The translations under genes and the position numbers were made by a program. From NCBI GenBank assembly GCA_963577905.1, contig CAUYZR010000003.1, positions 1 through 41,532 on the forward strand: 41,532 nt of DNA, given 5' to 3'. How positions within the stretch are numbered: the first letter of the stretch is position 1; every line of letters starts with the position of its first letter. Shown here piece by piece: positions 21,408 to 38,091 of this stretch. The notes below the pieces were generated by a model. That model was not told where the DNA came from, did no database searches, and was given only the letters and a program-made list of their open reading frames with translations. This stretch comes from Candidatus Thalassarchaeaceae archaeon (GTDB lineage: Archaea; Thermoplasmatota; Poseidoniia; MGIII; CG-Epi1).

Positions 21408-22154
21408 TTAGAGGTTATCGAGGAAGTCCTTTTCAGTGAAGTGTAATTTAGAGGGAATCACTAGGCTGTGTGGTTCTTTTCCTAGGTCTAATTTGGCCAG
21501 AACCTTTAATTTTCCGTACCATAATCTTTGGTCTTCTCTTCCTACTCTGGCGGCCGCTGCAACTTTTATTTCTCCAGATAGTCCGGTCTCGATGATCTGT
21601 TCTGCAGCCTGAGCAGCAGTCATGTAAATTGGTTCAGTTTCTGGCTGGTCGGCCTTGATATCCAATAATACCAAGGTATGATTCCCATTCTTCATATTGG
21701 TTTTGATCTTGTCGATAGGGCTGGTCGGTTTGTAGTTCCTCTCTGGAAGGACCAATGTTGCTACAGGGCCAAAGTTGTAATGTTGGAGTCCCAGAACACC
21801 CGCGACGGCGGTCAGGACAGATGCATTGTGTATTACATGATATTCAACCTTATTCTTCTTGCATTCTAACAATAAACTGACATGGGTTGTTGCAGATAGT
21901 GGATCTCCTACAACCAGTAATAAGATGTTCTTTTCTTTGGCTAATTCGATAATTTCTTTTGGTTCTTCAACTTGTCCTCTGGATAGATGTATGGGTTCCT
22001 TTTGTGACTTTAATTTTACCCAGTCCAGTGTTTCGGGATGAATTGGAGATGTATAGGTCTCATAGAATATGTGATCAGATAAACTAAGGGCTATCACTCC
22101 ATCCATATTTATGGAATTCGGTCCTCCTAGTCCTAGACCAATTATTGTCAGCAT
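21408..22154 (-). CDS. dph5: Diphthine synthase
   Basis: IIGLGL, YETYTS, VVGDPLSATTH, HNASV, GLQHYNFG, HTLVLLDI, PHSLVIP..LHFTE. Confidence 0.95.
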   Translation of the reverse strand: MLTIIGLGLGGPNSINMDGVIALSLSDHIFYETYTSPIHPETLDWVKLKSQKEPIHLSRGQVEEPKEIIELAKEKNILLLVVGDPLSATTHVSLLLECKKNKVEYHVIHNASVLTAVAGVLGLQHYNFGPVATLVLPERNYKPTSPIDKIKTNMKNGNHTLVLLDIKADQPETEPIYMTAAQAAEQIIETGLSGEIKVAAAARVGREDQRLWYGKLKVLAKLDLGKEPHSLVIPSKLHFTEKDFLDNL

Positions 22155-22188
22155 GAAGTCTTATTTGAGCCTCTCTTAATTAGTTACT

Positions 22189-22605
22189 ATGGCTATATCA
22201 CAAGGTTCATTGGAGATACGTACAAATCCTAAATCTTTCTTGGATATTACCAGTCAGGTTCAGGATTTTGTAATTGAGTCTAAAATACTGAATGGTGTTT
22301 GTCATTTATTTATTAAGCATACAAGTGCAAGTTTAGTCATTCAAGAAAATTATGATCCTTCTGTTAGACAAGATTTTGAAACTATTTTTTCTAATTTAGC
22401 TCCTGAAGATTTTCCATACGCTCATAATATGGAGGGTAAGGATGACATGCCGGCTCATATCCGTTCAGCTCTAACTAGCACTTCTGAGGCTGTTCCGGTT
22501 ATGAATGGCAAACTTTCATTGGGAACTTGGCAGGGAATATATTTGTGGGAGCACAGAGACCAGATGCATAGCCGGAAGGTAATGGTTAGTATTGTAGGTG
22601 AGTAA
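22189..22605 (+). CDS. YjbQ/UPF0047 family protein
   Basis: DITSQV, HTSASLVIQEN.DPSV, DDMPAHIRS, LGTWQGIYLWEHR. Confidence 0.92.
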   Translation: MAISQGSLEIRTNPKSFLDITSQVQDFVIESKILNGVCHLFIKHTSASLVIQENYDPSVRQDFETIFSNLAPEDFPYAHNMEGKDDMPAHIRSALTSTSEAVPVMNGKLSLGTWQGIYLWEHRDQMHSRKVMVSIVGE

Positions 22606-23189
22606 TGGAATTTAATCAATACAAAGCAAAGGCTATGAAAAAATTAGAAGATGCTAAATCAGAAGGTTTAGTTGATAAGGGTGTAATAGGAGTTCTCGAT
22701 TCTTTCAATTCACACCCCGATATTTTTACTACATCTAGTTGTGCAGGTAGATTGCAACTCATTGTTTTACCAGACGTAGGGAGAAAAGATTCTGTTGAGT
22801 TAAGAAAAACTTGGCATAGACCAGTTAAGTTTGAAGAAGTCAAAGAAGTACTTGACAATTTAGATATTCCTCTAAACTCTATTGTTATTCTACAAGGGCA
22901 GTCCCCCATCTTCCATGTAGCTTGTAGGACAATGGAGTTAGCCCAGAAGTTCAGGGGAATAGTCCACAGTAAAGGCTGGAAATATTCTTCATTGATAACT
23001 GGTAATGAGGACAAATGGGTGGTTGAGATCCTTTCAGCGAATAGGATTGATAATCTGTTATTCCGTGATGGTGTCATTGAACCTCCAGATGATGAACGTC
23101 TAAAATTTATCATTGAGGAATCAAATAAGATTTTGATTAAAGCCCAATCACGACTAGAAGCTTTGGAGTATATTCCTTCAGGCTTATAA
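22605..23189 (+). CDS. taw3: tRNA wyosine-derivative methyltransferase Taw3/TYW3
   Basis: GLVDKGV, FTTSSCAGR, TWHRPV, PIFHVACR, GWKYSS, VVEILS. Confidence 0.9.
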   Translation: MEFNQYKAKAMKKLEDAKSEGLVDKGVIGVLDSFNSHPDIFTTSSCAGRLQLIVLPDVGRKDSVELRKTWHRPVKFEEVKEVLDNLDIPLNSIVILQGQSPIFHVACRTMELAQKFRGIVHSKGWKYSSLITGNEDKWVVEILSANRIDNLLFRDGVIEPPDDERLKFIIEESNKILIKAQSRLEALEYIPSGL

Positions 23190-23211
23190 TTAAATACAAT
23201 TCATTCAGTGG

Positions 23212-24243
23212 TTGATTGTGAAGGCGCTCTATTTTGAAGAACATGGAGAAAGAGAGGTATTACAATACGGAGATTTACCGGATATCCAAAACAAAGATAA
23301 TCATGTGTTGATCAAAGTAGAAGCTTGTGCTTTGAATCATTTGGATATATGGATCCGAAAGGGTTGGCCTAGCCTTAATTTGCAAATGCCCCATATTGGA
23401 GGTAGTGATGTTTCTGGAACTGTTGTAGTAGGTAATGGGAAATGGAAAGAAGGAGATAAGATTGTAGTAGATCCAGGTATTTCTACAAAGGAAGATTCGT
23501 GGACTGAAAAAGGCCTGGATAGTATGAGTCCTGGTTATCGTATTCTGGGCGAGCATATCTGTGGAGGATGTGCTGAATATGTTTGTGTACCTGTAGAGAA
23601 CGTTCACACGCGTCCAGAGGGCATGTCGGCTAGTCAGGCAGCCGCACCTCTTCTTGCAGGTTTAACGGCCTATAGAATGCTTGTAAATCGGGCTAATATA
23701 CAGAAAGGAGATAATGTATTGGTAATGGGCTCTGGCGGTGGCGTTAATTCATTATCTATTCAGATTGCCAGACACTTTGGGGCTGATGTTCATGTTGTTG
23801 CTGGTGGAGCTGAAAAGAAAGTTAAAGCAGAAGGCCTCGGTGCTTCTTTTGTTGTAGATTACAAGGCTAATCCCGATTGGCACAAGGAATTGCTTCCAGT
23901 TATTGGCAGAAAAGGCTATGATATTGTAGTTGATAATGTGGGTAAACCAACTTGGTCCCATTCTATCAAATTAGCGGGTATTGGTGGTCGTATTGTCACA
24001 GTAGGTAATACAAAAGGTCCAATCGCCGAAACAGATATTCGCTATATCTTCTCGAAACAATTGTCTATTCTGGGATCAACGATGGGTTCTCATTCAGATT
24101 TTGCTGAATTGCTGAAATTATTAGGTTCTGGTTCTATTAAGCCAGTTATAGACTCTGAGATTCCTCTTTCAAATGGAGCCAAAGGTCATCAAATATTAGA
24201 AGAAGGAACTATGTTTGGTAAAGTTGTGATTGTACCTGACTAG
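23212..24243 (+). CDS. Medium-chain dehydrogenase/reductase (ADH/quinone-reductase-like)
   Basis: ACALNHLDIW, PHIGGSDVSG, ILGEHICGGCAEY, VMGSGGGV, ILGSTMG, FGKVVI. Confidence 0.9.
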   Translation: MIVKALYFEEHGEREVLQYGDLPDIQNKDNHVLIKVEACALNHLDIWIRKGWPSLNLQMPHIGGSDVSGTVVVGNGKWKEGDKIVVDPGISTKEDSWTEKGLDSMSPGYRILGEHICGGCAEYVCVPVENVHTRPEGMSASQAAAPLLAGLTAYRMLVNRANIQKGDNVLVMGSGGGVNSLSIQIARHFGADVHVVAGGAEKKVKAEGLGASFVVDYKANPDWHKELLPVIGRKGYDIVVDNVGKPTWSHSIKLAGIGGRIVTVGNTKGPIAETDIRYIFSKQLSILGSTMGSHSDFAELLKLLGSGSIKPVIDSEIPLSNGAKGHQILEEGTMFGKVVIVPD

Positions 24244-24599
24244 GTGAATTGTTCAATTTTTTCAATTAATGAGGGTAAGCGTACTGGTTTAGTTTCATAT
24301 TCATCGCAACCACCATCTAGTGCTTCTTGTCTATGTTCAGCCATTGCATGTGCTGTTAATGCAATAATAGGAATATTTCCTGTTGTTGAATCTTCCTTTA
24401 TTTCTTTAGTGGCTTGTAGCCCATCTTTTACAGGAAGGCCCATGTCCATCAGAATTACGTCCGGCATTTCACTTTTAGCCATATCAATAGCTTCTTGGCC
24501 ATCCATTGCAAAAATAATATCATACCCTTTCTTCATCAATCTTCTACTCAGCATATCCTTATTCATTTCGTTATCTTCAACAAGTAAAATTTTGGTCAT
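24240..24599 (-). CDS. Single-domain response regulator (DivK-like receiver)
   Basis: ILLVEDN, PDVILMDMGLP (phospho-Asp), IPIIALTAHAM, GCDEYETKPV; start overlaps the kinase stop. Confidence 0.95.
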   Translation of the reverse strand: MTKILLVEDNEMNKDMLSRRLMKKGYDIIFAMDGQEAIDMAKSEMPDVILMDMGLPVKDGLQATKEIKEDSTTGNIPIIALTAHAMAEHRQEALDGGCDEYETKPVRLPSLIEKIEQFT

Positions 24600-26866
24600 T
24601 AGTTTTCCTCTTGTACTACTATGGGAATTGTTATTGAAAAAGTTGTTCCCTTTCCCTCTTTACTTTCAACTTCCATTCTTCCTCCCATTATTTCTGTCAT
24701 TTTCTTACTTATTGGAAGACCAAGGCCAGTCCCTCCATAATTCTTTGAAGTGGAAGATTCTGCCTGTGTGAATTCTTCGAATACATTACCTATTTGCTCA
24801 TCATTCATCCCAATTCCTGTGTCTGTGACATCAAATCTAATTTGATTCTTATTTTCAGACTTTATCTTTAGAGTAATTTTACCTTTGTTTGTAAATTTAG
24901 CGGCATTACTAAGCATATTGAATAATATTTGTCTAATTTTGGTCTGGTCATTTTTTAGTTTCATATTTTTAGTTTCATTGTTTATTATAAATTTATTTTT
25001 ATTTTTCTCAACTAATGGTTTGGCCGTTGCCTCTATTTGCTTCAATAAAGTATTTAGTTCAATATCTTCAATATATAAATCCATTTTTCCAGCTTCTATC
25101 TTTGAGAGGTCCAATATGTCGTTTATAAGTGTCAGAAGATGTTCACCCGAAGAATGGATTTTAGTTAAATCGTCAGAATACGTATCGAGTCCATCATCCT
25201 CAGCTTCTTCCATTAGCATTTCACTATAGCCAATTATGGCATTCAATGGTGTTCTTAGTTCATGGCTCATTTTTGCTAAGAAGTCAGATTTGGCCTGATT
25301 TGCAGTTTGGGCATTCTGCATTGCAACCTGTAAATCATCTTTTTGTTTTCTCATTATCTTATCTGATTCTTCTAGGCTGCCCATGAGAATATTATAGTGA
25401 TATCCTATCTGGCCAGCTTCAGTGAAAAGGTCTTCAGGGCCTCTAACAGAAAGGTCTCCCGTATCATTCTGGTATTGCATTATCTTTAGCAAATCTATTT
25501 GATCACTACTAGAATCGTGTTCAGCAATATTGAGTCCTATGTCTTCAGCCTCTTGACTAACTCTTAGGGGGCTGTAATTATTTATTACATTCAATAGGAT
25601 ATAACTTACGAAAAAAGTATAGAGTCCTACGGAAATAATTCCAATAAGTTGCGCAATGAACTGATTCACTCGTACATTTCCGGTGTACTCTGTCAGATTT
25701 TGATTTCCAATTAAATATTCTTCAGCGGCAAAGAATGGTAAAACTAATGTTCCAAAAATTCCTCCAGCAAGATGAACAGGTATAGCTCCAACGGGATCAT
25801 CTAATTCTAATCTTTCAAGTAAACGCGTTGCATATAATGCCACTAAACCTCCTCCTGCACCTATTATTACGGCACTCAAAGGGGTTACCCAGTTCGCACT
25901 AGCTGTTACAGCTACTAGGCCCGCTAGCAGTCCGTTAAGCAAGTCCCCCGCTGGAGCAGTAGTATTCTGAACACCCCAGAAAATAAGACAAACTACAATT
26001 CCTGCAGCTGCTGCCAAGAAGGTATTTAATAAAATTCCAGGCACAGCTTCATCAAGAACTAGATTGCTTCCTCCATTAAACCCATGCCATCCAAATCCTA
26101 ATAGAAGTACACCCAGAACCGATAAGGGAAGGTTGCTGGGTGCAAATTTCCTTGTCTTACCTTCAACAAATCTTCCAGTCCTAGGTCCTATTATCAAGAT
26201 TATTGCAAGTCCAATCCAGCCTCCTGTTGAGTGGACTATGGTAGATCCGGCAAAGTCAACGAATCCAGCGTCATATAACCAGCCTGTAGACCCATCCCCT
26301 CCAAACAGGTCATCACTATTGGCCCATGCCCAGTGGCCAACTACAGGATATAGAATAGTACCTACTATTGCAGTTATGACTAGATAACTGTTAAATTTCA
26401 GTCTCTCCGCTACAGCTCCCGAAATTATTGAGGCGGCAGTTGCACAAAACATAGATTGAAATATAAAAAAAGTCATTGCTTGACCTGATGTTGCAGTTCC
26501 ACTAGGATCAAAGAAGAAGTCATTGGAACCCATGAAACCAGATTTACTAATTCCAAACATAAATCCATATCCAATGGTCCAAAAACAGACTATAGAAATA
26601 CCAAAATCAGAAACATTTTTCAGTGCAACATTAATATTGTTTTTATTCCTGATTATTCCAGATTCAAGACACATAAATCCAGCTTGCATCATAAAGACTA
26701 GAATAGCACAAATAAGCATCCAGAGAAGGTCTATGTTCGAAGCATTATTATCTATTGTCTCATCAGCAGCCCTGACTGTGTTCAAAGTAGTTATCAGTAT
26801 AATAAAAGCCAATGAGAAAATTATTAATCTTTTAAAGGTCTGAACGAAATTTAGCATTGTATTCAT
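24599..26866 (-). CDS. Ammonium transporter (Amt) - HAMP-like linker - histidine kinase fusion
   Basis: Amt: LVFMMQAGF..LESG, FQSMF, SGAVAER, DFAGSTIVHSTGG, GWHGFNGGS, NGLLAGLVAVTA, DDPVGAIPVH. Kinase: FLAKMSHELRTPLNAIIG, LSNAAKFT, DTGIGM, GGTGLGL. Confidence 0.96.
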   Translation of the reverse strand: MNTMLNFVQTFKRLIIFSLAFIILITTLNTVRAADETIDNNASNIDLLWMLICAILVFMMQAGFMCLESGIIRNKNNINVALKNVSDFGISIVCFWTIGYGFMFGISKSGFMGSNDFFFDPSGTATSGQAMTFFIFQSMFCATAASIISGAVAERLKFNSYLVITAIVGTILYPVVGHWAWANSDDLFGGDGSTGWLYDAGFVDFAGSTIVHSTGGWIGLAIILIIGPRTGRFVEGKTRKFAPSNLPLSVLGVLLLGFGWHGFNGGSNLVLDEAVPGILLNTFLAAAAGIVVCLIFWGVQNTTAPAGDLLNGLLAGLVAVTASANWVTPLSAVIIGAGGGLVALYATRLLERLELDDPVGAIPVHLAGGIFGTLVLPFFAAEEYLIGNQNLTEYTGNVRVNQFIAQLIGIISVGLYTFFVSYILLNVINNYSPLRVSQEAEDIGLNIAEHDSSSDQIDLLKIMQYQNDTGDLSVRGPEDLFTEAGQIGYHYNILMGSLEESDKIMRKQKDDLQVAMQNAQTANQAKSDFLAKMSHELRTPLNAIIGYSEMLMEEAEDDGLDTYSDDLTKIHSSGEHLLTLINDILDLSKIEAGKMDLYIEDIELNTLLKQIEATAKPLVEKNKNKFIINNETKNMKLKNDQTKIRQILFNMLSNAAKFTNKGKITLKIKSENKNQIRFDVTDTGIGMNDEQIGNVFEEFTQAESSTSKNYGGTGLGLPISKKMTEIMGGRMEVESKEGKGTTFSITIPIVVQEEN

Positions 26867-26925
26867 CCTTATTCGATTCTGTATTTAAAAATATAACCTA
26901 AAATACTCCAACTAATTATGAAAGC

Positions 26926-27210
26926 ATGGATGATTTCGATGATGATGAGTGGGCCGAAATGCAGGAAATGTATATTAATTTTACATTTAAGGAATTAAAG
27001 AATCTAAAGAAGGATTTGAGGATTGAGAATATGGAAGCTTTACAAACATTTGGTCATAATACCAAAGGAAGTGGAGGAATGTACGGTTTTGATGAAATTA
27101 CTCGATTAGGTGCCGAAATCGAATCATTGGCCAAAGAATCAGAGTTAGATGGTATTGTAAAATTATTTCAAAACTTGGAAACGTTTCTAAATTCTAAGAT
27201 TGAACTGTAA
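26926..27210 (+). CDS. Stand-alone histidine phosphotransfer (HPt) protein
   Basis: 94 aa helical protein with GHNTKGSGGMYGFDEITRLGAEIE (HxxKGS motif). Confidence 0.88.
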   Translation: MDDFDDDEWAEMQEMYINFTFKELKNLKKDLRIENMEALQTFGHNTKGSGGMYGFDEITRLGAEIESLAKESELDGIVKLFQNLETFLNSKIEL

Positions 27211-27245
27211 GCTCAAGTTCTAATATAACTGTTTAATCGGCAATC

Positions 27246-28202
27246 GTGTCAGATTTAAATTTACCTAATATACTTGCTGTTGATGATGATTATGCTGTAC
27301 GTATGGGTCTGGATTTCATGTTTAAAAAATGGCCAGAATATAATTTGGTCTTAGCTGAAGATCCAAATGATGCCCTTGCTAAGTTAGATGAACGAGAATA
27401 TCTTATGATGTTCAGTGATATCCATATGCCAATTATGTCCGGACTTGAATTATTACAGATAATAAAAGATAAAAGACCAGATATGCCCGTTATTATGTTA
27501 ACTTCTGAGACTGATATACATAGTTCAATTACAGCTTTCCGTTATGGGGCAATGGATTATTTGTTGAAACCGATGACAACGTCTACAGTACGTGATGCAA
27601 TAGATAAGGCAGCACTCTATGTCGAGAAATTATCTAGCAAAACTCTTGGAGTAATAGACATGGAAGACTTCAAGAATTTGGCCGAGAATTTTACTCCAGA
27701 GAAAATGGGCCTTACCACATCAGGTTCTAAAAGTTCCGAATTCACTAAATTAGTAACCATGCTCCAGGAGAAATTGATTCATCCAGGTAAGATTGGTCGA
27801 ATCCATAATTTATTCTTATTGTCTAAATCAGGTATAGTTATTGCAAATTTATCTGCGAAAAGTGTTGAACAAACAGATGTTGAGATATTAGGTGGAATGT
27901 TTACAGCAGTAAAAGATTTTATGGAAGATGCAGTAAGCGCTAGTACTACTTCGTCTTTGAACGACATTCAATTCGGTAATTTTCACGTTAAATTTGCTTC
28001 GGGAGCCTTCTCTGAATTGGCAGTAGTGTATACTGGAGTTCTAAATCAAGAAGCAGAGGATGCGATAACTGATACACTTATAGCTTTTGAATTAGAGAAT
28101 ATGGACATTTTGGAAAACTGGGATGGAGATATGTCTAAATTTGGCACTTCGGTTCAACATTTAGAGAGTCTCTTTGCAGCGATTGACAAGGATAAAAGTT
28201 AA
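27246..28202 (+). CDS. Response regulator with a C-terminal longin/roadblock-like output domain
   Basis: Receiver: ILAVDDD, FSDIHMPIMSG, PVIMLTS, GAMDYLLKP. C-terminus: LFLLSKSGIVI..DVEILGGMFTAVKDFM..WDGD. The receiver call is firm; the output fold is inferred. Confidence 0.85.
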   Translation: MSDLNLPNILAVDDDYAVRMGLDFMFKKWPEYNLVLAEDPNDALAKLDEREYLMMFSDIHMPIMSGLELLQIIKDKRPDMPVIMLTSETDIHSSITAFRYGAMDYLLKPMTTSTVRDAIDKAALYVEKLSSKTLGVIDMEDFKNLAENFTPEKMGLTTSGSKSSEFTKLVTMLQEKLIHPGKIGRIHNLFLLSKSGIVIANLSAKSVEQTDVEILGGMFTAVKDFMEDAVSASTTSSLNDIQFGNFHVKFASGAFSELAVVYTGVLNQEAEDAITDTLIAFELENMDILENWDGDMSKFGTSVQHLESLFAAIDKDKS

Positions 28203-29044
28203 TTTTTTCTCAATATAGCAATGATATGGCTTGTACTAGGACCATAAAATTTCACTCTTTCAAATTTTTCTACAACAAAACCCTTTGTTTTCATCAAATC
28301 TGAGAATTTGGTTGGAATACTTCCCCAGTCGCTTCTACTTTTGAACCCCAACCAGTTATTTCGGTATGCTTCGTGAAAGATTACAATTCCTTTATCGTTA
28401 AGATTATCGTATGTATGTTCAAGAAAATCAATAGTATTTCCAATATATCCTAAATGTATGACATCAGCTTTCACATTCACATTTCTACAATCATCATTTA
28501 TAATTTCTATATTTTTAATATTATTATCTTCAACATTCATTGACAAATATTCAATTGATTTTGGATTCTTATCGATGGCCACTATCTTTGTTTGAGGATA
28601 CCCCTTTGCCATTTGTAGAGAGAAATACCCGATACCTGCAAAATAGTCGATGATTGTTTCAGGGTTATCAAATGTATAGAAATCATTGACTTTTCTAGGA
28701 CCTACCAGAGCCGATCTCCAACCAGTGTTACCTGGTGACCACATAATTTCGCTAAGATCTAATTTATAACTTATTCCATATTCAGTGATTACTGTTGTCG
28801 TTTCTTTGCCATATAAAATCTCAACTTTCCCAGGTTTTCTGAGTTCACCACTAATTCTACGTTTTTGTATAATTGTTTTAGCACCTAATTCTTCTGCATA
28901 AAATTTGGCGATTTTGTTTCTTTTATTTTTATCTATGTTTTTAAGATCAAGAATGATAATATCCCCTACTTTCTTCCACTTTTTGGGTAAGTTGTTGTGT
29001 ATCTCTGAACTTATCTTTAGCTTAATATTTTCAAGAGGATTCAT
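28199..29044 (-). CDS. taw2: Trm5/Taw2 (Met-10+) family SAM-dependent tRNA-modifying enzyme, probably Taw2
   Basis: LPKKWKKVGDIII, ISGELRKP, MWSPGN, DYFAGIGYF, DKNP, IHLGY, IFHE; taw3 lies in the same window. Confidence 0.75.
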   Translation of the reverse strand: MNPLENIKLKISSEIHNNLPKKWKKVGDIIILDLKNIDKNKRNKIAKFYAEELGAKTIIQKRRISGELRKPGKVEILYGKETTTVITEYGISYKLDLSEIMWSPGNTGWRSALVGPRKVNDFYTFDNPETIIDYFAGIGYFSLQMAKGYPQTKIVAIDKNPKSIEYLSMNVEDNNIKNIEIINDDCRNVNVKADVIHLGYIGNTIDFLEHTYDNLNDKGIVIFHEAYRNNWLGFKSRSDWGSIPTKFSDLMKTKGFVVEKFERVKFYGPSTSHIIAILRKN

Positions 29045-29904
29045 TATTCAGCTAATTTTCTTAGTAAGGCTATTTCAGGTTTCCACATTTCAGGGCCACC
29101 CGGTGTTTCAAGATATACTGCTAAATCTTTTAATCTTTTCTCCTGCATAAAGTTCTTGAAAGTTTCTTTACCTAATTTTCCCATTCCAATATTATCGTGC
29201 CTATCAACTCTTGATCCTAATTCACTTTTTGAATCGTTAAGATGAAGTGCTACCAAATGTTCCATACCAACTATATTCTCGAAATCGTCCCATGTTTGGC
29301 TAAAATTGTTTTTCCAATCATAACCAGAGGCCCATGCATGTTGTGTATCAATACAAACACCAACTCTCTTTTTGTCATCTATATGGTCAATAATATGTTT
29401 TATTTCTTCGAATTTTATCCCGACATTGGTTCCTTGTCCAGCAGCATTTTCGATTATTAATTTTGATTCATATCCTTTTGTTTTATCTAATGTTTTGTTC
29501 ATGTGATGAGCAATTCGTTCTAATGCATCATATCTTGTTTGTTTATCGTCCCTCATATCTTTTTTTGGATGGGTATGAGACCCCGGGTGGAAATTGAGAT
29601 AGGCAACACCAAGTGCTTCACATCTGTGATATTCTTCTAAGAATGCAACTTGAGCTCTTTTGCCTTTAGTTTCATCTGGACTTCCCATGTTTATCAAATA
29701 TGAATCATGTATCATAAGGGGGCCAAGATCGGTTTCAGATAATGGTTTTTTGAATCCTTCTATTTGTTCTTCAGTTAGTGGTTTTGCTATCCATTGTCTT
29801 TGATTTTTACTAAACATTTGAAATGTATCAGCTTCTATTTCCAAAGCCCAAGGGATTGCGTTCTGAAGTCCCCCTGCAACACTTACGTGAGCTCCTAGTC
29901 TCAT
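29044..29904 (-). CDS. nfo: Endonuclease IV
   Basis: LGAHVSVAGG, HDSYLIN, NFHPGS, ENAAGQG, CIDTQH, HLNDS, DRHDNIG, LETP. Confidence 0.96.
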   Translation of the reverse strand: MRLGAHVSVAGGLQNAIPWALEIEADTFQMFSKNQRQWIAKPLTEEQIEGFKKPLSETDLGPLMIHDSYLINMGSPDETKGKRAQVAFLEEYHRCEALGVAYLNFHPGSHTHPKKDMRDDKQTRYDALERIAHHMNKTLDKTKGYESKLIIENAAGQGTNVGIKFEEIKHIIDHIDDKKRVGVCIDTQHAWASGYDWKNNFSQTWDDFENIVGMEHLVALHLNDSKSELGSRVDRHDNIGMGKLGKETFKNFMQEKRLKDLAVYLETPGGPEMWKPEIALLRKLAE

Positions 29905-32259: not shown

Positions 32260-32336
32260 GGGTCCGTGGTCTAGTTGGTTATGACGTCGCCTTGACATGG
32301 CGGAGATCCCCGGTTCGAATCCGGGCGGACCCACCA
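32260..32336 (+). tRNA. tRNA-Val(GAC)
   Basis: Acceptor stem GGGTCCG/CGGACCC, anticodon arm TCGCC-TTGACAT-GGCGG (GAC at 32294-32296), T arm CCCGG-TTCGAAT-CCGGG, encoded ACCA; TTTAAA box at 32231-32236. Confidence 0.97.

Positions 32337-36621: not shown

Positions 36622-38091
<1,470 letters not shown>

Follow-up and report, generated by a model that had tools for sequence, protein, structure and literature searches.

A candidate four-protein phosphorelay with an ammonium receptor-type kinase in an MGIII archaeon

We describe a four-gene locus at positions 24240-28202 of a 41,532-nucleotide stretch of DNA from an MGIII (CG-Epi1-type) archaeon (contig CAUYZR010000003.1 of assembly GCA_963577905.1, positions 1 to 41,532; the whole stretch is hereafter called the window), whose genome assembly comprises 1.19 Mb in 86 contigs and is 68% complete. 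The locus consists of two divergent gene pairs, one encoding an ammonium transporter family (Amt) domain fused to a histidine kinase (the Amt-kinase) and a stand-alone receiver (REC1), and the other encoding a stand-alone histidine phosphotransfer protein (HPt) and a response regulator (RR-out) with a predicted longin/roadblock-like output domain. We consider it fairly probable (about 60%), judging from the sequences, that these four proteins form a linear, split His-Asp-His-Asp phosphorelay with REC1 as its hub and RR-out as its terminal regulator; the direction of such a relay, the sequence of its transfer steps, its dependence on ammonium, and its target are matters of inference.

All four open reading frames (ORFs) are intact and lie where the original prediction had placed them, with ORFs and Pfam domains agreeing on the two divergent pairs. 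The Amt-kinase (24599-26866, reverse strand) is listed as a 755-amino-acid (aa) ORF with Pfam and NCBIfam matches, and Pfam assigns to it an Ammonium_transp domain (25511-26725, residues 48-452, 381.6 bits), a HisKA domain (25088-25294, residues 525-593, 76.5 bits; His535 codon at 25262-25264), and a HATPase_c domain (24620-24952, residues 639-749, 104.7 bits). Its orthologues begin at ATG 26857, which is Met4 of the listed ORF, and the true start is probably this codon, giving a protein of 752 aa. We located the strings SHELRTP (His535), NAAKFT, DTGIGM, FEEFTQ, and GGTGLGL, which we take to be the H, N, G1, F, and G2 boxes, respectively. With an H box, ATP-binding boxes, and both Pfam domains above cut-off, the protein fits a class I (HisKA) histidine kinase. 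REC1 (24240-24599, reverse strand, 119 aa) is a single Response_reg domain (88.1 bits; Asp52 codon at 24444-24446), with residues E8/D9, D52, T82, and K104 unchanged across nine orthologues of 77 to 92% identity; the solved sequences nearest to it are DivK and receiver domains of hybrid kinases. Its start overlaps the Amt-kinase stop as TAATG, and by this overlap REC1 appears to be translationally coupled to the kinase genes.

On the forward strand, HPt (26926-27210, 94 aa; His44 codon at 27055-27057) scores 35.1 bits against Pfam Hpt (PF01627; curated cut-off, 24.6 bits) and carries the motif FGHNxKGSGGMYGF, invariant in 11 orthologues, in which H44-N-x-K47-G48 provides the HxxKG context. The assignment is based on Pfam and this conserved motif, and a PDB profile search with the HPt alignment gave one weak match (6ff6, E = 1e-4). 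RR-out (27246-28202, forward strand, 318 aa) comprises a receiver (27270-27602, residues 9-119, Response_reg 85.6 bits; Asp58 codon at 27417-27419), a helical linker, and the output domain (approximately 27798-28175), which an AlphaFold2 (AF2) model and Foldseek place among longin/roadblock-like folds. The four phospho-sites are intact, as previously claimed, with the strings SHELRT (His535), LMD (Asp52), HNTKGS (His44), and FSD (Asp58) all found and the sites invariant in the orthologue alignments (9 REC1, 11 HPt, and 14 RR-out sequences). REC1 is the best conserved of the four proteins, with 84 to 92% identity within the genus versus 55 to 64% for HPt.

The locus holds the sole two-component signalling genes that we find in this 68%-complete genome. 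Two Response_reg matches and one match each to HisKA, Hpt, and Ammonium_transp all fall at it, and the three remaining HATPase_c matches are GyrB, topoisomerase VI-B, and MutL. With such a one-of-each inventory, the only wiring that uses every part runs from the histidine kinase to one receiver, on to HPt, and from there to the other receiver.

Conservation was surveyed in 45 genomes of the order, 43 of which belong to family f1, and 20 loci were retrieved, 15 of them relay-type. Kinase, HPt, and RR-out occur together in all 15; REC1 is present in 12, with two loci lacking it and one cut by a contig end. Counted by genome, the Amt-kinase fusion is found in 15 of the 45 (four as fragments at contig ends), REC1 orthologues (at least 76% identity) in 18, and Hpt in 21, with 20 stand-alone genes, all in family f1, and one 778-aa ORF in family f2. 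Every one of the 20 genomes with a stand-alone HPt carries a relay-type RR-out (broken in genome G038), and 17 carry a REC1 orthologue, the exceptions being G014 and G016, which are cut at contig ends, and G038, in which the locus is decayed. In genus g1, to which the window genome belongs, the layout is a dehydrogenase (forward), then REC1, zero to two copies of a second kinase (HK441), and the Amt-kinase (all reverse), followed by HPt and RR-out (forward) and by TYW2 and endonuclease IV (reverse). Genus g3 shows a rearranged layout, with HPt on the reverse strand and Amt-kinase, REC1, and RR-out on the forward strand, and the four genes are still together. The four genes form one unit, linked in two genera of the MGIII family despite rearrangement; the original prediction was to be abandoned if the two pairs did not co-occur in relatives, and they do, even in g3. 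Among 401 sampled genomes of the class, the 356 that belong to the three other (MGII) families gave no Hpt match, and the Amt-kinase fusion was confined to family f1. As a separate observation, the decayed locus of G038, a g3 species (L051/L022, G038:C1), keeps HPt and has RR-out in two fragments, with the kinase and REC1 gone; the free-standing Amt gene of this species, on G038:C56, seems to be split into two parts, one on each strand.

The 59-bp divergent intergenic region contains an AT-rich core (26882-26904; TATTTAA..ATATAACCTA.A.T), with 21 of its 23 positions invariant in nine of nine aligned intergenic regions and with variable flanks. The core is kept even in the two regions in which the neighboring kinase is HK441, and we propose that it could be a TATA-like promoter element shared by both operons. 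These observations bear on whether the two pairs are chance neighbors, such that REC1, in the manner of CheY, is the final output of the Amt-kinase and other kinases serve HPt and RR-out. The divergent orientation of the pairs is the sole point in its favor, and we regard this account as highly improbable: we find no other kinase or receiver in the genome, the linkage of the four genes survives the g3 rearrangement, stand-alone HPt is restricted to where the kinase/REC1/RR-out set is present, and the intergenic region holds a shared invariant core.

With respect to expression, the window stretch is present in seawater metagenomes of 13 studies, and metatranscriptome contigs from two libraries of two studies cover parts of the Amt-kinase and RR-out genes, one also covering REC1, with 15 of the 18 pieces at least 99% alike. 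This is a hint of transcription. The RNA evidence consists of contigs only, which reveal neither transcript ends nor operon structure, and DNA can occur in such libraries, which limits the case for the relay. In run X14, no contig fell on 22000-24135 or 28141-29742, and uncovered parts prove nothing, so that we take neither the flanks to be silent nor the cluster to be preferentially expressed.

In the linear relay, the Amt domain, which is of the ammonium receptor (AmR) class, would sense external NH4+ and signal to the fused class I kinase, which would autophosphorylate on His535. The phosphoryl group would then pass to Asp52 of the co-translated REC1, from Asp52 to His44 of HPt, and from His44 to Asp58 of RR-out, its end point, where phosphorylation would alter the protein contacts of the longin/roadblock-like C-terminal domain (C-domain). 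REC1 may serve as a hub that pools several inputs, because one or two HK441 share its operon in relatives. Several observations weigh against this scheme. The order of transfer cannot be fixed from sequence alone, and the non-hybrid nature of the kinase makes direct transfer from kinase to RR-out chemically possible. Two relay-type loci (G033:C40 and G029:C25) have no REC1 beside their kinases, and the two genomes carry REC1 orthologues elsewhere. The relay is also patchy, with HPt in 20 of the 43 family f1 genomes, indicating that it is dispensable, and further signalling genes of the 68%-complete genome may be unassembled.

The first of these points lead to a branched topology, in which the kinase (and HK441) would phosphorylate RR-out directly and REC1 and HPt would form a side branch, either draining or buffering phosphate by reverse transfer from RR-out through HPt to REC1 or with REC1 competing as a phosphate sink. 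The four genes would remain one unit, without a linear relay. In addition to the non-hybrid kinase and the two loci lacking an adjacent REC1, this topology can draw on a paralogous RR-out that has a kinase as its direct partner and lacks an HPt, which indicates that this response regulator family can be a direct kinase substrate. We nevertheless find the branched topology rather unlikely, since REC1 is apparently coupled in translation to the kinase genes and HPt is co-oriented with RR-out, since the closest bacterial kinases are hybrids with built-in receivers, one of them followed by a stand-alone receiver 60 to 62% identical to REC1, and since the high conservation of REC1 relative to HPt fits a hub with several partners. 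The accessible part of a preprint (bioRxiv 10.1101/2022.06.03.494635) gives no general sequence rule by which REC1 could be classed as Rec_inter or Rec_term.

The input side of the locus is variable. Most relatives have a second membrane kinase, HK441, between the Amt-kinase and REC1, with a kinase core 71 to 76% identical to that of the Amt-kinase and an N terminus of several hydrophobic segments that matches no Pfam family. One genome has two HK441 copies, and three (G021, G023, and G024) have HK441 only, without an Amt-kinase. Since the Amt-kinase is absent or joined by HK441 in relatives, the constant core is REC1-HPt-RR-out, and ammonium would be one input among others. The earlier suggestion of a nitrogen-status pathway therefore stands in part: the sensor is of the AmR class, but the pathway is not dedicated to ammonium, given the added HK441 and the three species without an Amt-kinase. 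We also observe that DNA contigs of two seawater metagenomes (X2 and X3) diverge from the window at 24267, 24330, 24355, and 25249, that is, inside REC1 and at the kinase H box, a pattern that would fit a mixture of strains with unequal sets of kinase genes at this locus, like the zero to two HK441 copies between species.

The paralogous RR-out (61 to 66% identical in g1 and 45 to 49% in g3) lies in a plain operon of response regulator and kinase, with no HPt and no REC1 orthologue; at one g3 locus, an unrelated 161-aa receiver ORF lies upstream. Together with its kinase, it appears from sequence to be a second, plain two-component pair that shares the output domain. The kinase beside it is soluble (461 to 463 aa in g1 and 521 aa in g3; loci L047, L048, L019, L023, and L024, and L049 and L026), and its N terminus contains two repeats of a ARFPEENPHSVIR...YVN(I/V)YG(V/T)D(I/V)T motif that matches no Pfam family.

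For the sensor, the Amt domain matches NCBIfam TIGR00836 with 407.2 bits (cut-off, 343.3). Ranked against PDB sequences, the Amt-kinase scores highest with 8qj3 (405.6 bits) and 8qpf (405.5 bits), which we take to be the Sd-Amt1 described by Pflüger et al. 2024, followed by 6eu6 (303.3 bits), which we take to be the Amt domain of Ks-Amt5, and at a distance by Af-Amt1 (167.9 bits) and AmtB (approximately 120 to 125 bits). By sequence score, the Amt domain is thus closest to two characterized sensor Amts and far above the transporters. By AmtB numbering, the Amt domain keeps the twin-His and Asp strings of the pore (VDFAGS, VHSTGG, and VHLAGG). In the accessible text of Pflüger et al. (PMC11152129), AmRs are defined by an N1/N2 signature, QX6EX15NX2D[FT]X54-60TX2[ST]; a regular-expression search finds this signature at residues 61-146 of the window protein and in 12 of 12 full-length orthologues. 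An Amt/Rh core, the N1/N2 signature, and a fused cytoplasmic HisKA and HATPase_c, the sequence features of an AmR, are accordingly all present in one ORF.

The retained pore strings also speak for a different input step, in which the Amt-kinase would act as a transceptor that serves chiefly for ammonium uptake, with the kinase reporting flux instead of the outside concentration and the relay adjusting uptake or assimilation in place of a pure receptor pathway; this concerns the input only and is compatible with either topology. Further in its favor, no Amt-family protein besides the fusion was found in the window genome or, more generally, in genus g1, where all 12 Amt-positive genomes, the window genome included, carry the fusion only. 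The accessible text of PMC11152129 also states that some signature-bearing Amts do transport, and the Amt-kinase may, from its sequence, also or mainly transport ammonium. Set against this, the same text reports that Ks-Amt5 keeps all conserved motifs without NH4+ translocation, and the sequence of the Amt domain is far nearer to the two sensors than to transporters. Moreover, no Amt match was found in 20 of the 32 g1 genomes, among them G031, G003, and G007, which are 85 to 91% complete, so that Amt is not essential to genus g1. We therefore treat a chiefly transporting Amt-kinase as possible, if doubtful, and retain a sensory role for it in the linear relay.

No PII, DNA-binding regulator, or che gene adjoins the four genes, in line with what had been predicted; the locus is flanked by genes for a Zn-dependent dehydrogenase and for a TYW2/Trm5 methyltransferase. 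Searches for P-II (PF00543) found no match in the window genome or in the full set of 45 genomes from the order; nine of these reach a completeness of 90% or more, and a control search matched 13 of 14 reference genomes. Amt-family genes occur in 15 of the 45 genomes, and the GlnK(PII)-AmtB arrangement, in which PII is encoded with or near the Amt gene, is not what we observe here. The relay is the only recognizable ammonium-sensing candidate in those PII-negative MGIII species that have it.

With respect to origin, the closest Amt-kinases from beyond the order occur in Chloroflexales/Oscillochloris as hybrids of 1100 to 1121 aa, 48 to 52% identical in both halves, with the architecture Amt-(PAS)-HisKA-HATPase-REC-REC (domain order scanned in one protein and derived from BLAST matches in two). 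The scanned Chloroflexales relative has a PAS domain in its linker, whereas the MGIII Amt-kinase linker is without PAS. Amt-cyclase fusions of Rhodobacterales are also among the bacterial matches. The kinase core is 56 to 57% identical to cyanobacterial (Pleurocapsales) REC-HK-REC-REC hybrids, and directly after each Pleurocapsales hybrid gene lies a 122-aa receiver 60 to 62% identical to REC1, followed by a HisKA-REC-SpoIIE protein. MGII archaeal counterparts are more distant, with Amts 32 to 35% and kinases at most 39% identical. Bacterial hybrids being closest and MGII archaeal proteins distant, a bacterial origin is supported, and the idea of a bacterial-type sensor is borne out (48 to 51% identity to bacterial Amt-kinase hybrids versus 32 to 35% to MGII Amts). 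The comparison further suggests that REC1 is a detached receiver of the hybrid-kinase type.

The proposed end point of the linear relay, RR-out, contains no DNA-binding domain, and its residues 120-318 match no Pfam family. An AF2 model of the C-domain alone (41-row alignment) has a mean predicted local distance difference test (pLDDT) of 83.1 and a predicted TM-score (pTM) of 0.79, with the topology alpha-beta-beta-alpha-beta-beta-beta-alpha, and a Foldseek search of the PDB with it gave 86 matches at E ≤ 1e-3. The matches listed include AP sigma, COPI, LAMTOR/Ragulator, TRAPP, Mon1-Ccz1, MglB, roadblock-domain proteins including an Asgard Roadblock, and axonemal doublet-microtubule chains, and all those listed are longin/roadblock-type folds or proteins of complexes containing them; their likeness is moderate (E values of 6.5e-5 to 4.9e-4; TM-scores of 0.37 to 0.62). 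Robl_LC7 (PF03259) has no match in RR-out and none in the genome at E ≤ 0.1, and for this reason we call the modelled C-domain longin/roadblock-like in fold and place it outside the family. A distant relative (P0144) scores 20.9 bits with Robl_LC7 over the equivalent region, short of the cut-off of 23. In the ESM Atlas, the best matches are unnamed Thermoplasmatota clusters, and a 'Roadblock/LAMTOR2' cluster at rank 17 (score, 0.82) is taken as a lead only. A fold search with whole RR-out was dominated by the receiver (CheY, PorX, and similar proteins) and uninformative on the output, and the C-domain was refolded alone.

An exhaustive search of 1.84 billion representatives retrieved 1488 C-domain clusters at E ≤ 1e-3 and four at E ≤ 1e-30. 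By these sequence matches, the C-domain core of approximately 120 residues appears widespread and its fusion to a receiver rare. Among 10 relatives scanned, the partners were OmpA/BON, a zinc ribbon, a true Robl_LC7, or very long proteins, and four of the 10 were without a family. We take the OmpA/BON-bearing relatives to be bacterial, the representatives carrying no taxonomy, and with a longin/roadblock-like fold spread over 1488 clusters that include them, the output can no longer be called archaeal-type, as it originally was.

In the window genome, the C-domain recurs in one other protein only, of at least 2603 aa. This giant ORF (G000:C48:2-7810, L052) lies outside the window and is truncated where the contig ends; its protein has an outer part with PKD, Y_Y_Y, and laminin-G/ConA-like domains, one predicted membrane helix (1652-1672), and, inside, an RR-out-type domain (residues 2181-2308) followed by an acidic repeat tail. 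ORFs of 1600 to 7000 aa with an RR-out-type domain are also found in relatives.

In genus g4, two genes with an RR-out-type domain directly precede a Ras-like GTPase paralogue on one strand, as an operon (L144, G001:C54, 2935-6001, and L145, G002:C219, 969-3661; domain proteins of 484/480 aa and 314/198 aa in the two loci). The window genome has a Ras-family GTPase of its own (177 aa; Pfam Ras, 139.7 bits), which is found in 31 of the 45 genomes and is 98 to 99% identical within g1 (94% in one genome), compared with approximately 80% for the relay proteins. Its gene row (G000:C69:326-2228, L143, reverse strand) lies outside the window and encodes the GTPase, a 157-aa V4R-like protein (a weak match of 16.8 bits, below cut-off), and a TPR protein. 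Given the output fold, the g4 operon, the conserved GTPase, and the giant protein that carries the domain, phosphorylated RR-out might conceivably act as a GTPase-activating protein, a guanine nucleotide exchange factor, or a scaffold for the Ras-like GTPase, or pair with its counterpart domain in the cytoplasmic tails of the giant surface proteins, a reading to which we give little credence. Complex prediction for two RR-out C-domains with this GTPase scored 0.06 and 0.28 against a mark of 0.32 and counts neither way. If the reading were true, a transceptor-like ammonium sensor would act on a small GTPase by way of a roadblock-type module, in a prokaryotic pathway that ends off DNA and that, by analogy only, would share the logic of eukaryotic Ragulator-Rag nutrient sensing.

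Split phosphorelays are known from Bacillus (KinA-E, Spo0F, Spo0B, and Spo0A) and from Vibrio (LuxN, LuxQ, and CqsS, with LuxU and LuxO), in which, as proposed here, several kinases converge on one relay with one terminal response regulator. The putative REC1 hub resembles Spo0F of sporulation or LuxU of Vibrio, and a stand-alone single-domain receiver, like Spo0F, and a separate phosphotransfer protein are further shared features. Spo0B, however, is a four-helix dimer, whereas HPt is of the monomeric type (Pfam Hpt); the Vibrio kinases are hybrids, whereas those of MGIII are not; and in contrast to the Spo0 and Lux terminal regulators, RR-out has no DNA-binding or sigma-54 domain.

On the sensor side, Ks-Amt5 of 'Ca. 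Kuenenia stuttgartiensis' (PMC5764959) and the AmR Sd-Amt1 (PMC11152129) share with the Amt-kinase an Amt core fused C-terminally to HisKA/HATPase_c, the N1/N2 signature, and the absence of an encoded PII partner, and they are its closest solved sequences; they differ in that the host is here an archaeon (MGIII) and a candidate complete downstream pathway adjoins the sensor. As far as their accessible text goes, both papers characterize the sensor and name no downstream partner, with PMC5764959 mentioning 'response regulator' once, in a general description only. The view that the system had not been described holds for the relay, since the open-access literature searched, supplementary files aside, yielded no description linking MGIII archaea to an Amt-kinase relay, but not for the Amt-kinase fusion, which is an already described class.

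Two-component parts coupled to roadblock modules and small GTPases have precedents, according to the accessible text of PMC4316618, in Myxococcus MglB-MglA with RomR/Frz and in the Streptomyces conservon, which consists of the CvnA kinase, the CvnB roadblock protein, and the CvnD GTPase. These share with the present system a longin/roadblock-type fold and two-component coupling, and the RR-out-type domain lies in a GTPase operon in g4. The difference is that receiver and domain are here directly joined in one protein, without a Robl_LC7 match and without an adjacent GTPase in the window. The accessible main text of the archaeal census of Galperin et al. 2018 (PMC5847659) counts three kinases and four regulators for 11 Thermoplasmata genomes, places Hpt solely within hybrid kinases of Methanomicrobia, and contains one Roadblock-related REC-associated domain, NitrOD3-REC. 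Like RR-out, NitrOD3-REC is an archaeal regulator with a non-DNA-binding, lineage-restricted output, but NitrOD3 is described as N-terminal to REC and as restricted to Nitrososphaera, which sets RR-out apart by description; an architecture like that of RR-out was not found in this main text, supplements aside.

The new elements are that the host is an archaeon, that a complete candidate pathway lies next to an AmR kinase, that Thermoplasmatota have a stand-alone HPt, and that a receiver is fused to a longin/roadblock-like domain, whereas the AmR class, the Spo0/Lux-type relay logic, and the coupling of two-component systems to roadblock modules are already known. MGIII archaea are uncultured plankton, and the relay is a compact candidate route for their ammonium sensing; in a genome of approximately 1.2 Mb with apparently one AmR sensor and one relay set, the whole route leading from NH4+ to the output could be reconstituted with four small proteins. 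The relay also ties a receiver to an uncatalogued longin/roadblock-like family, which occurs in giant surface proteins as well as next to a Ras-like GTPase.

Elsewhere in the window, we observe a complete archaeal 16S rRNA gene (36622-38091, reverse strand), with a 23S match absent across the window, and a tRNA-Val(GAC) gene (32260-32336, forward strand).

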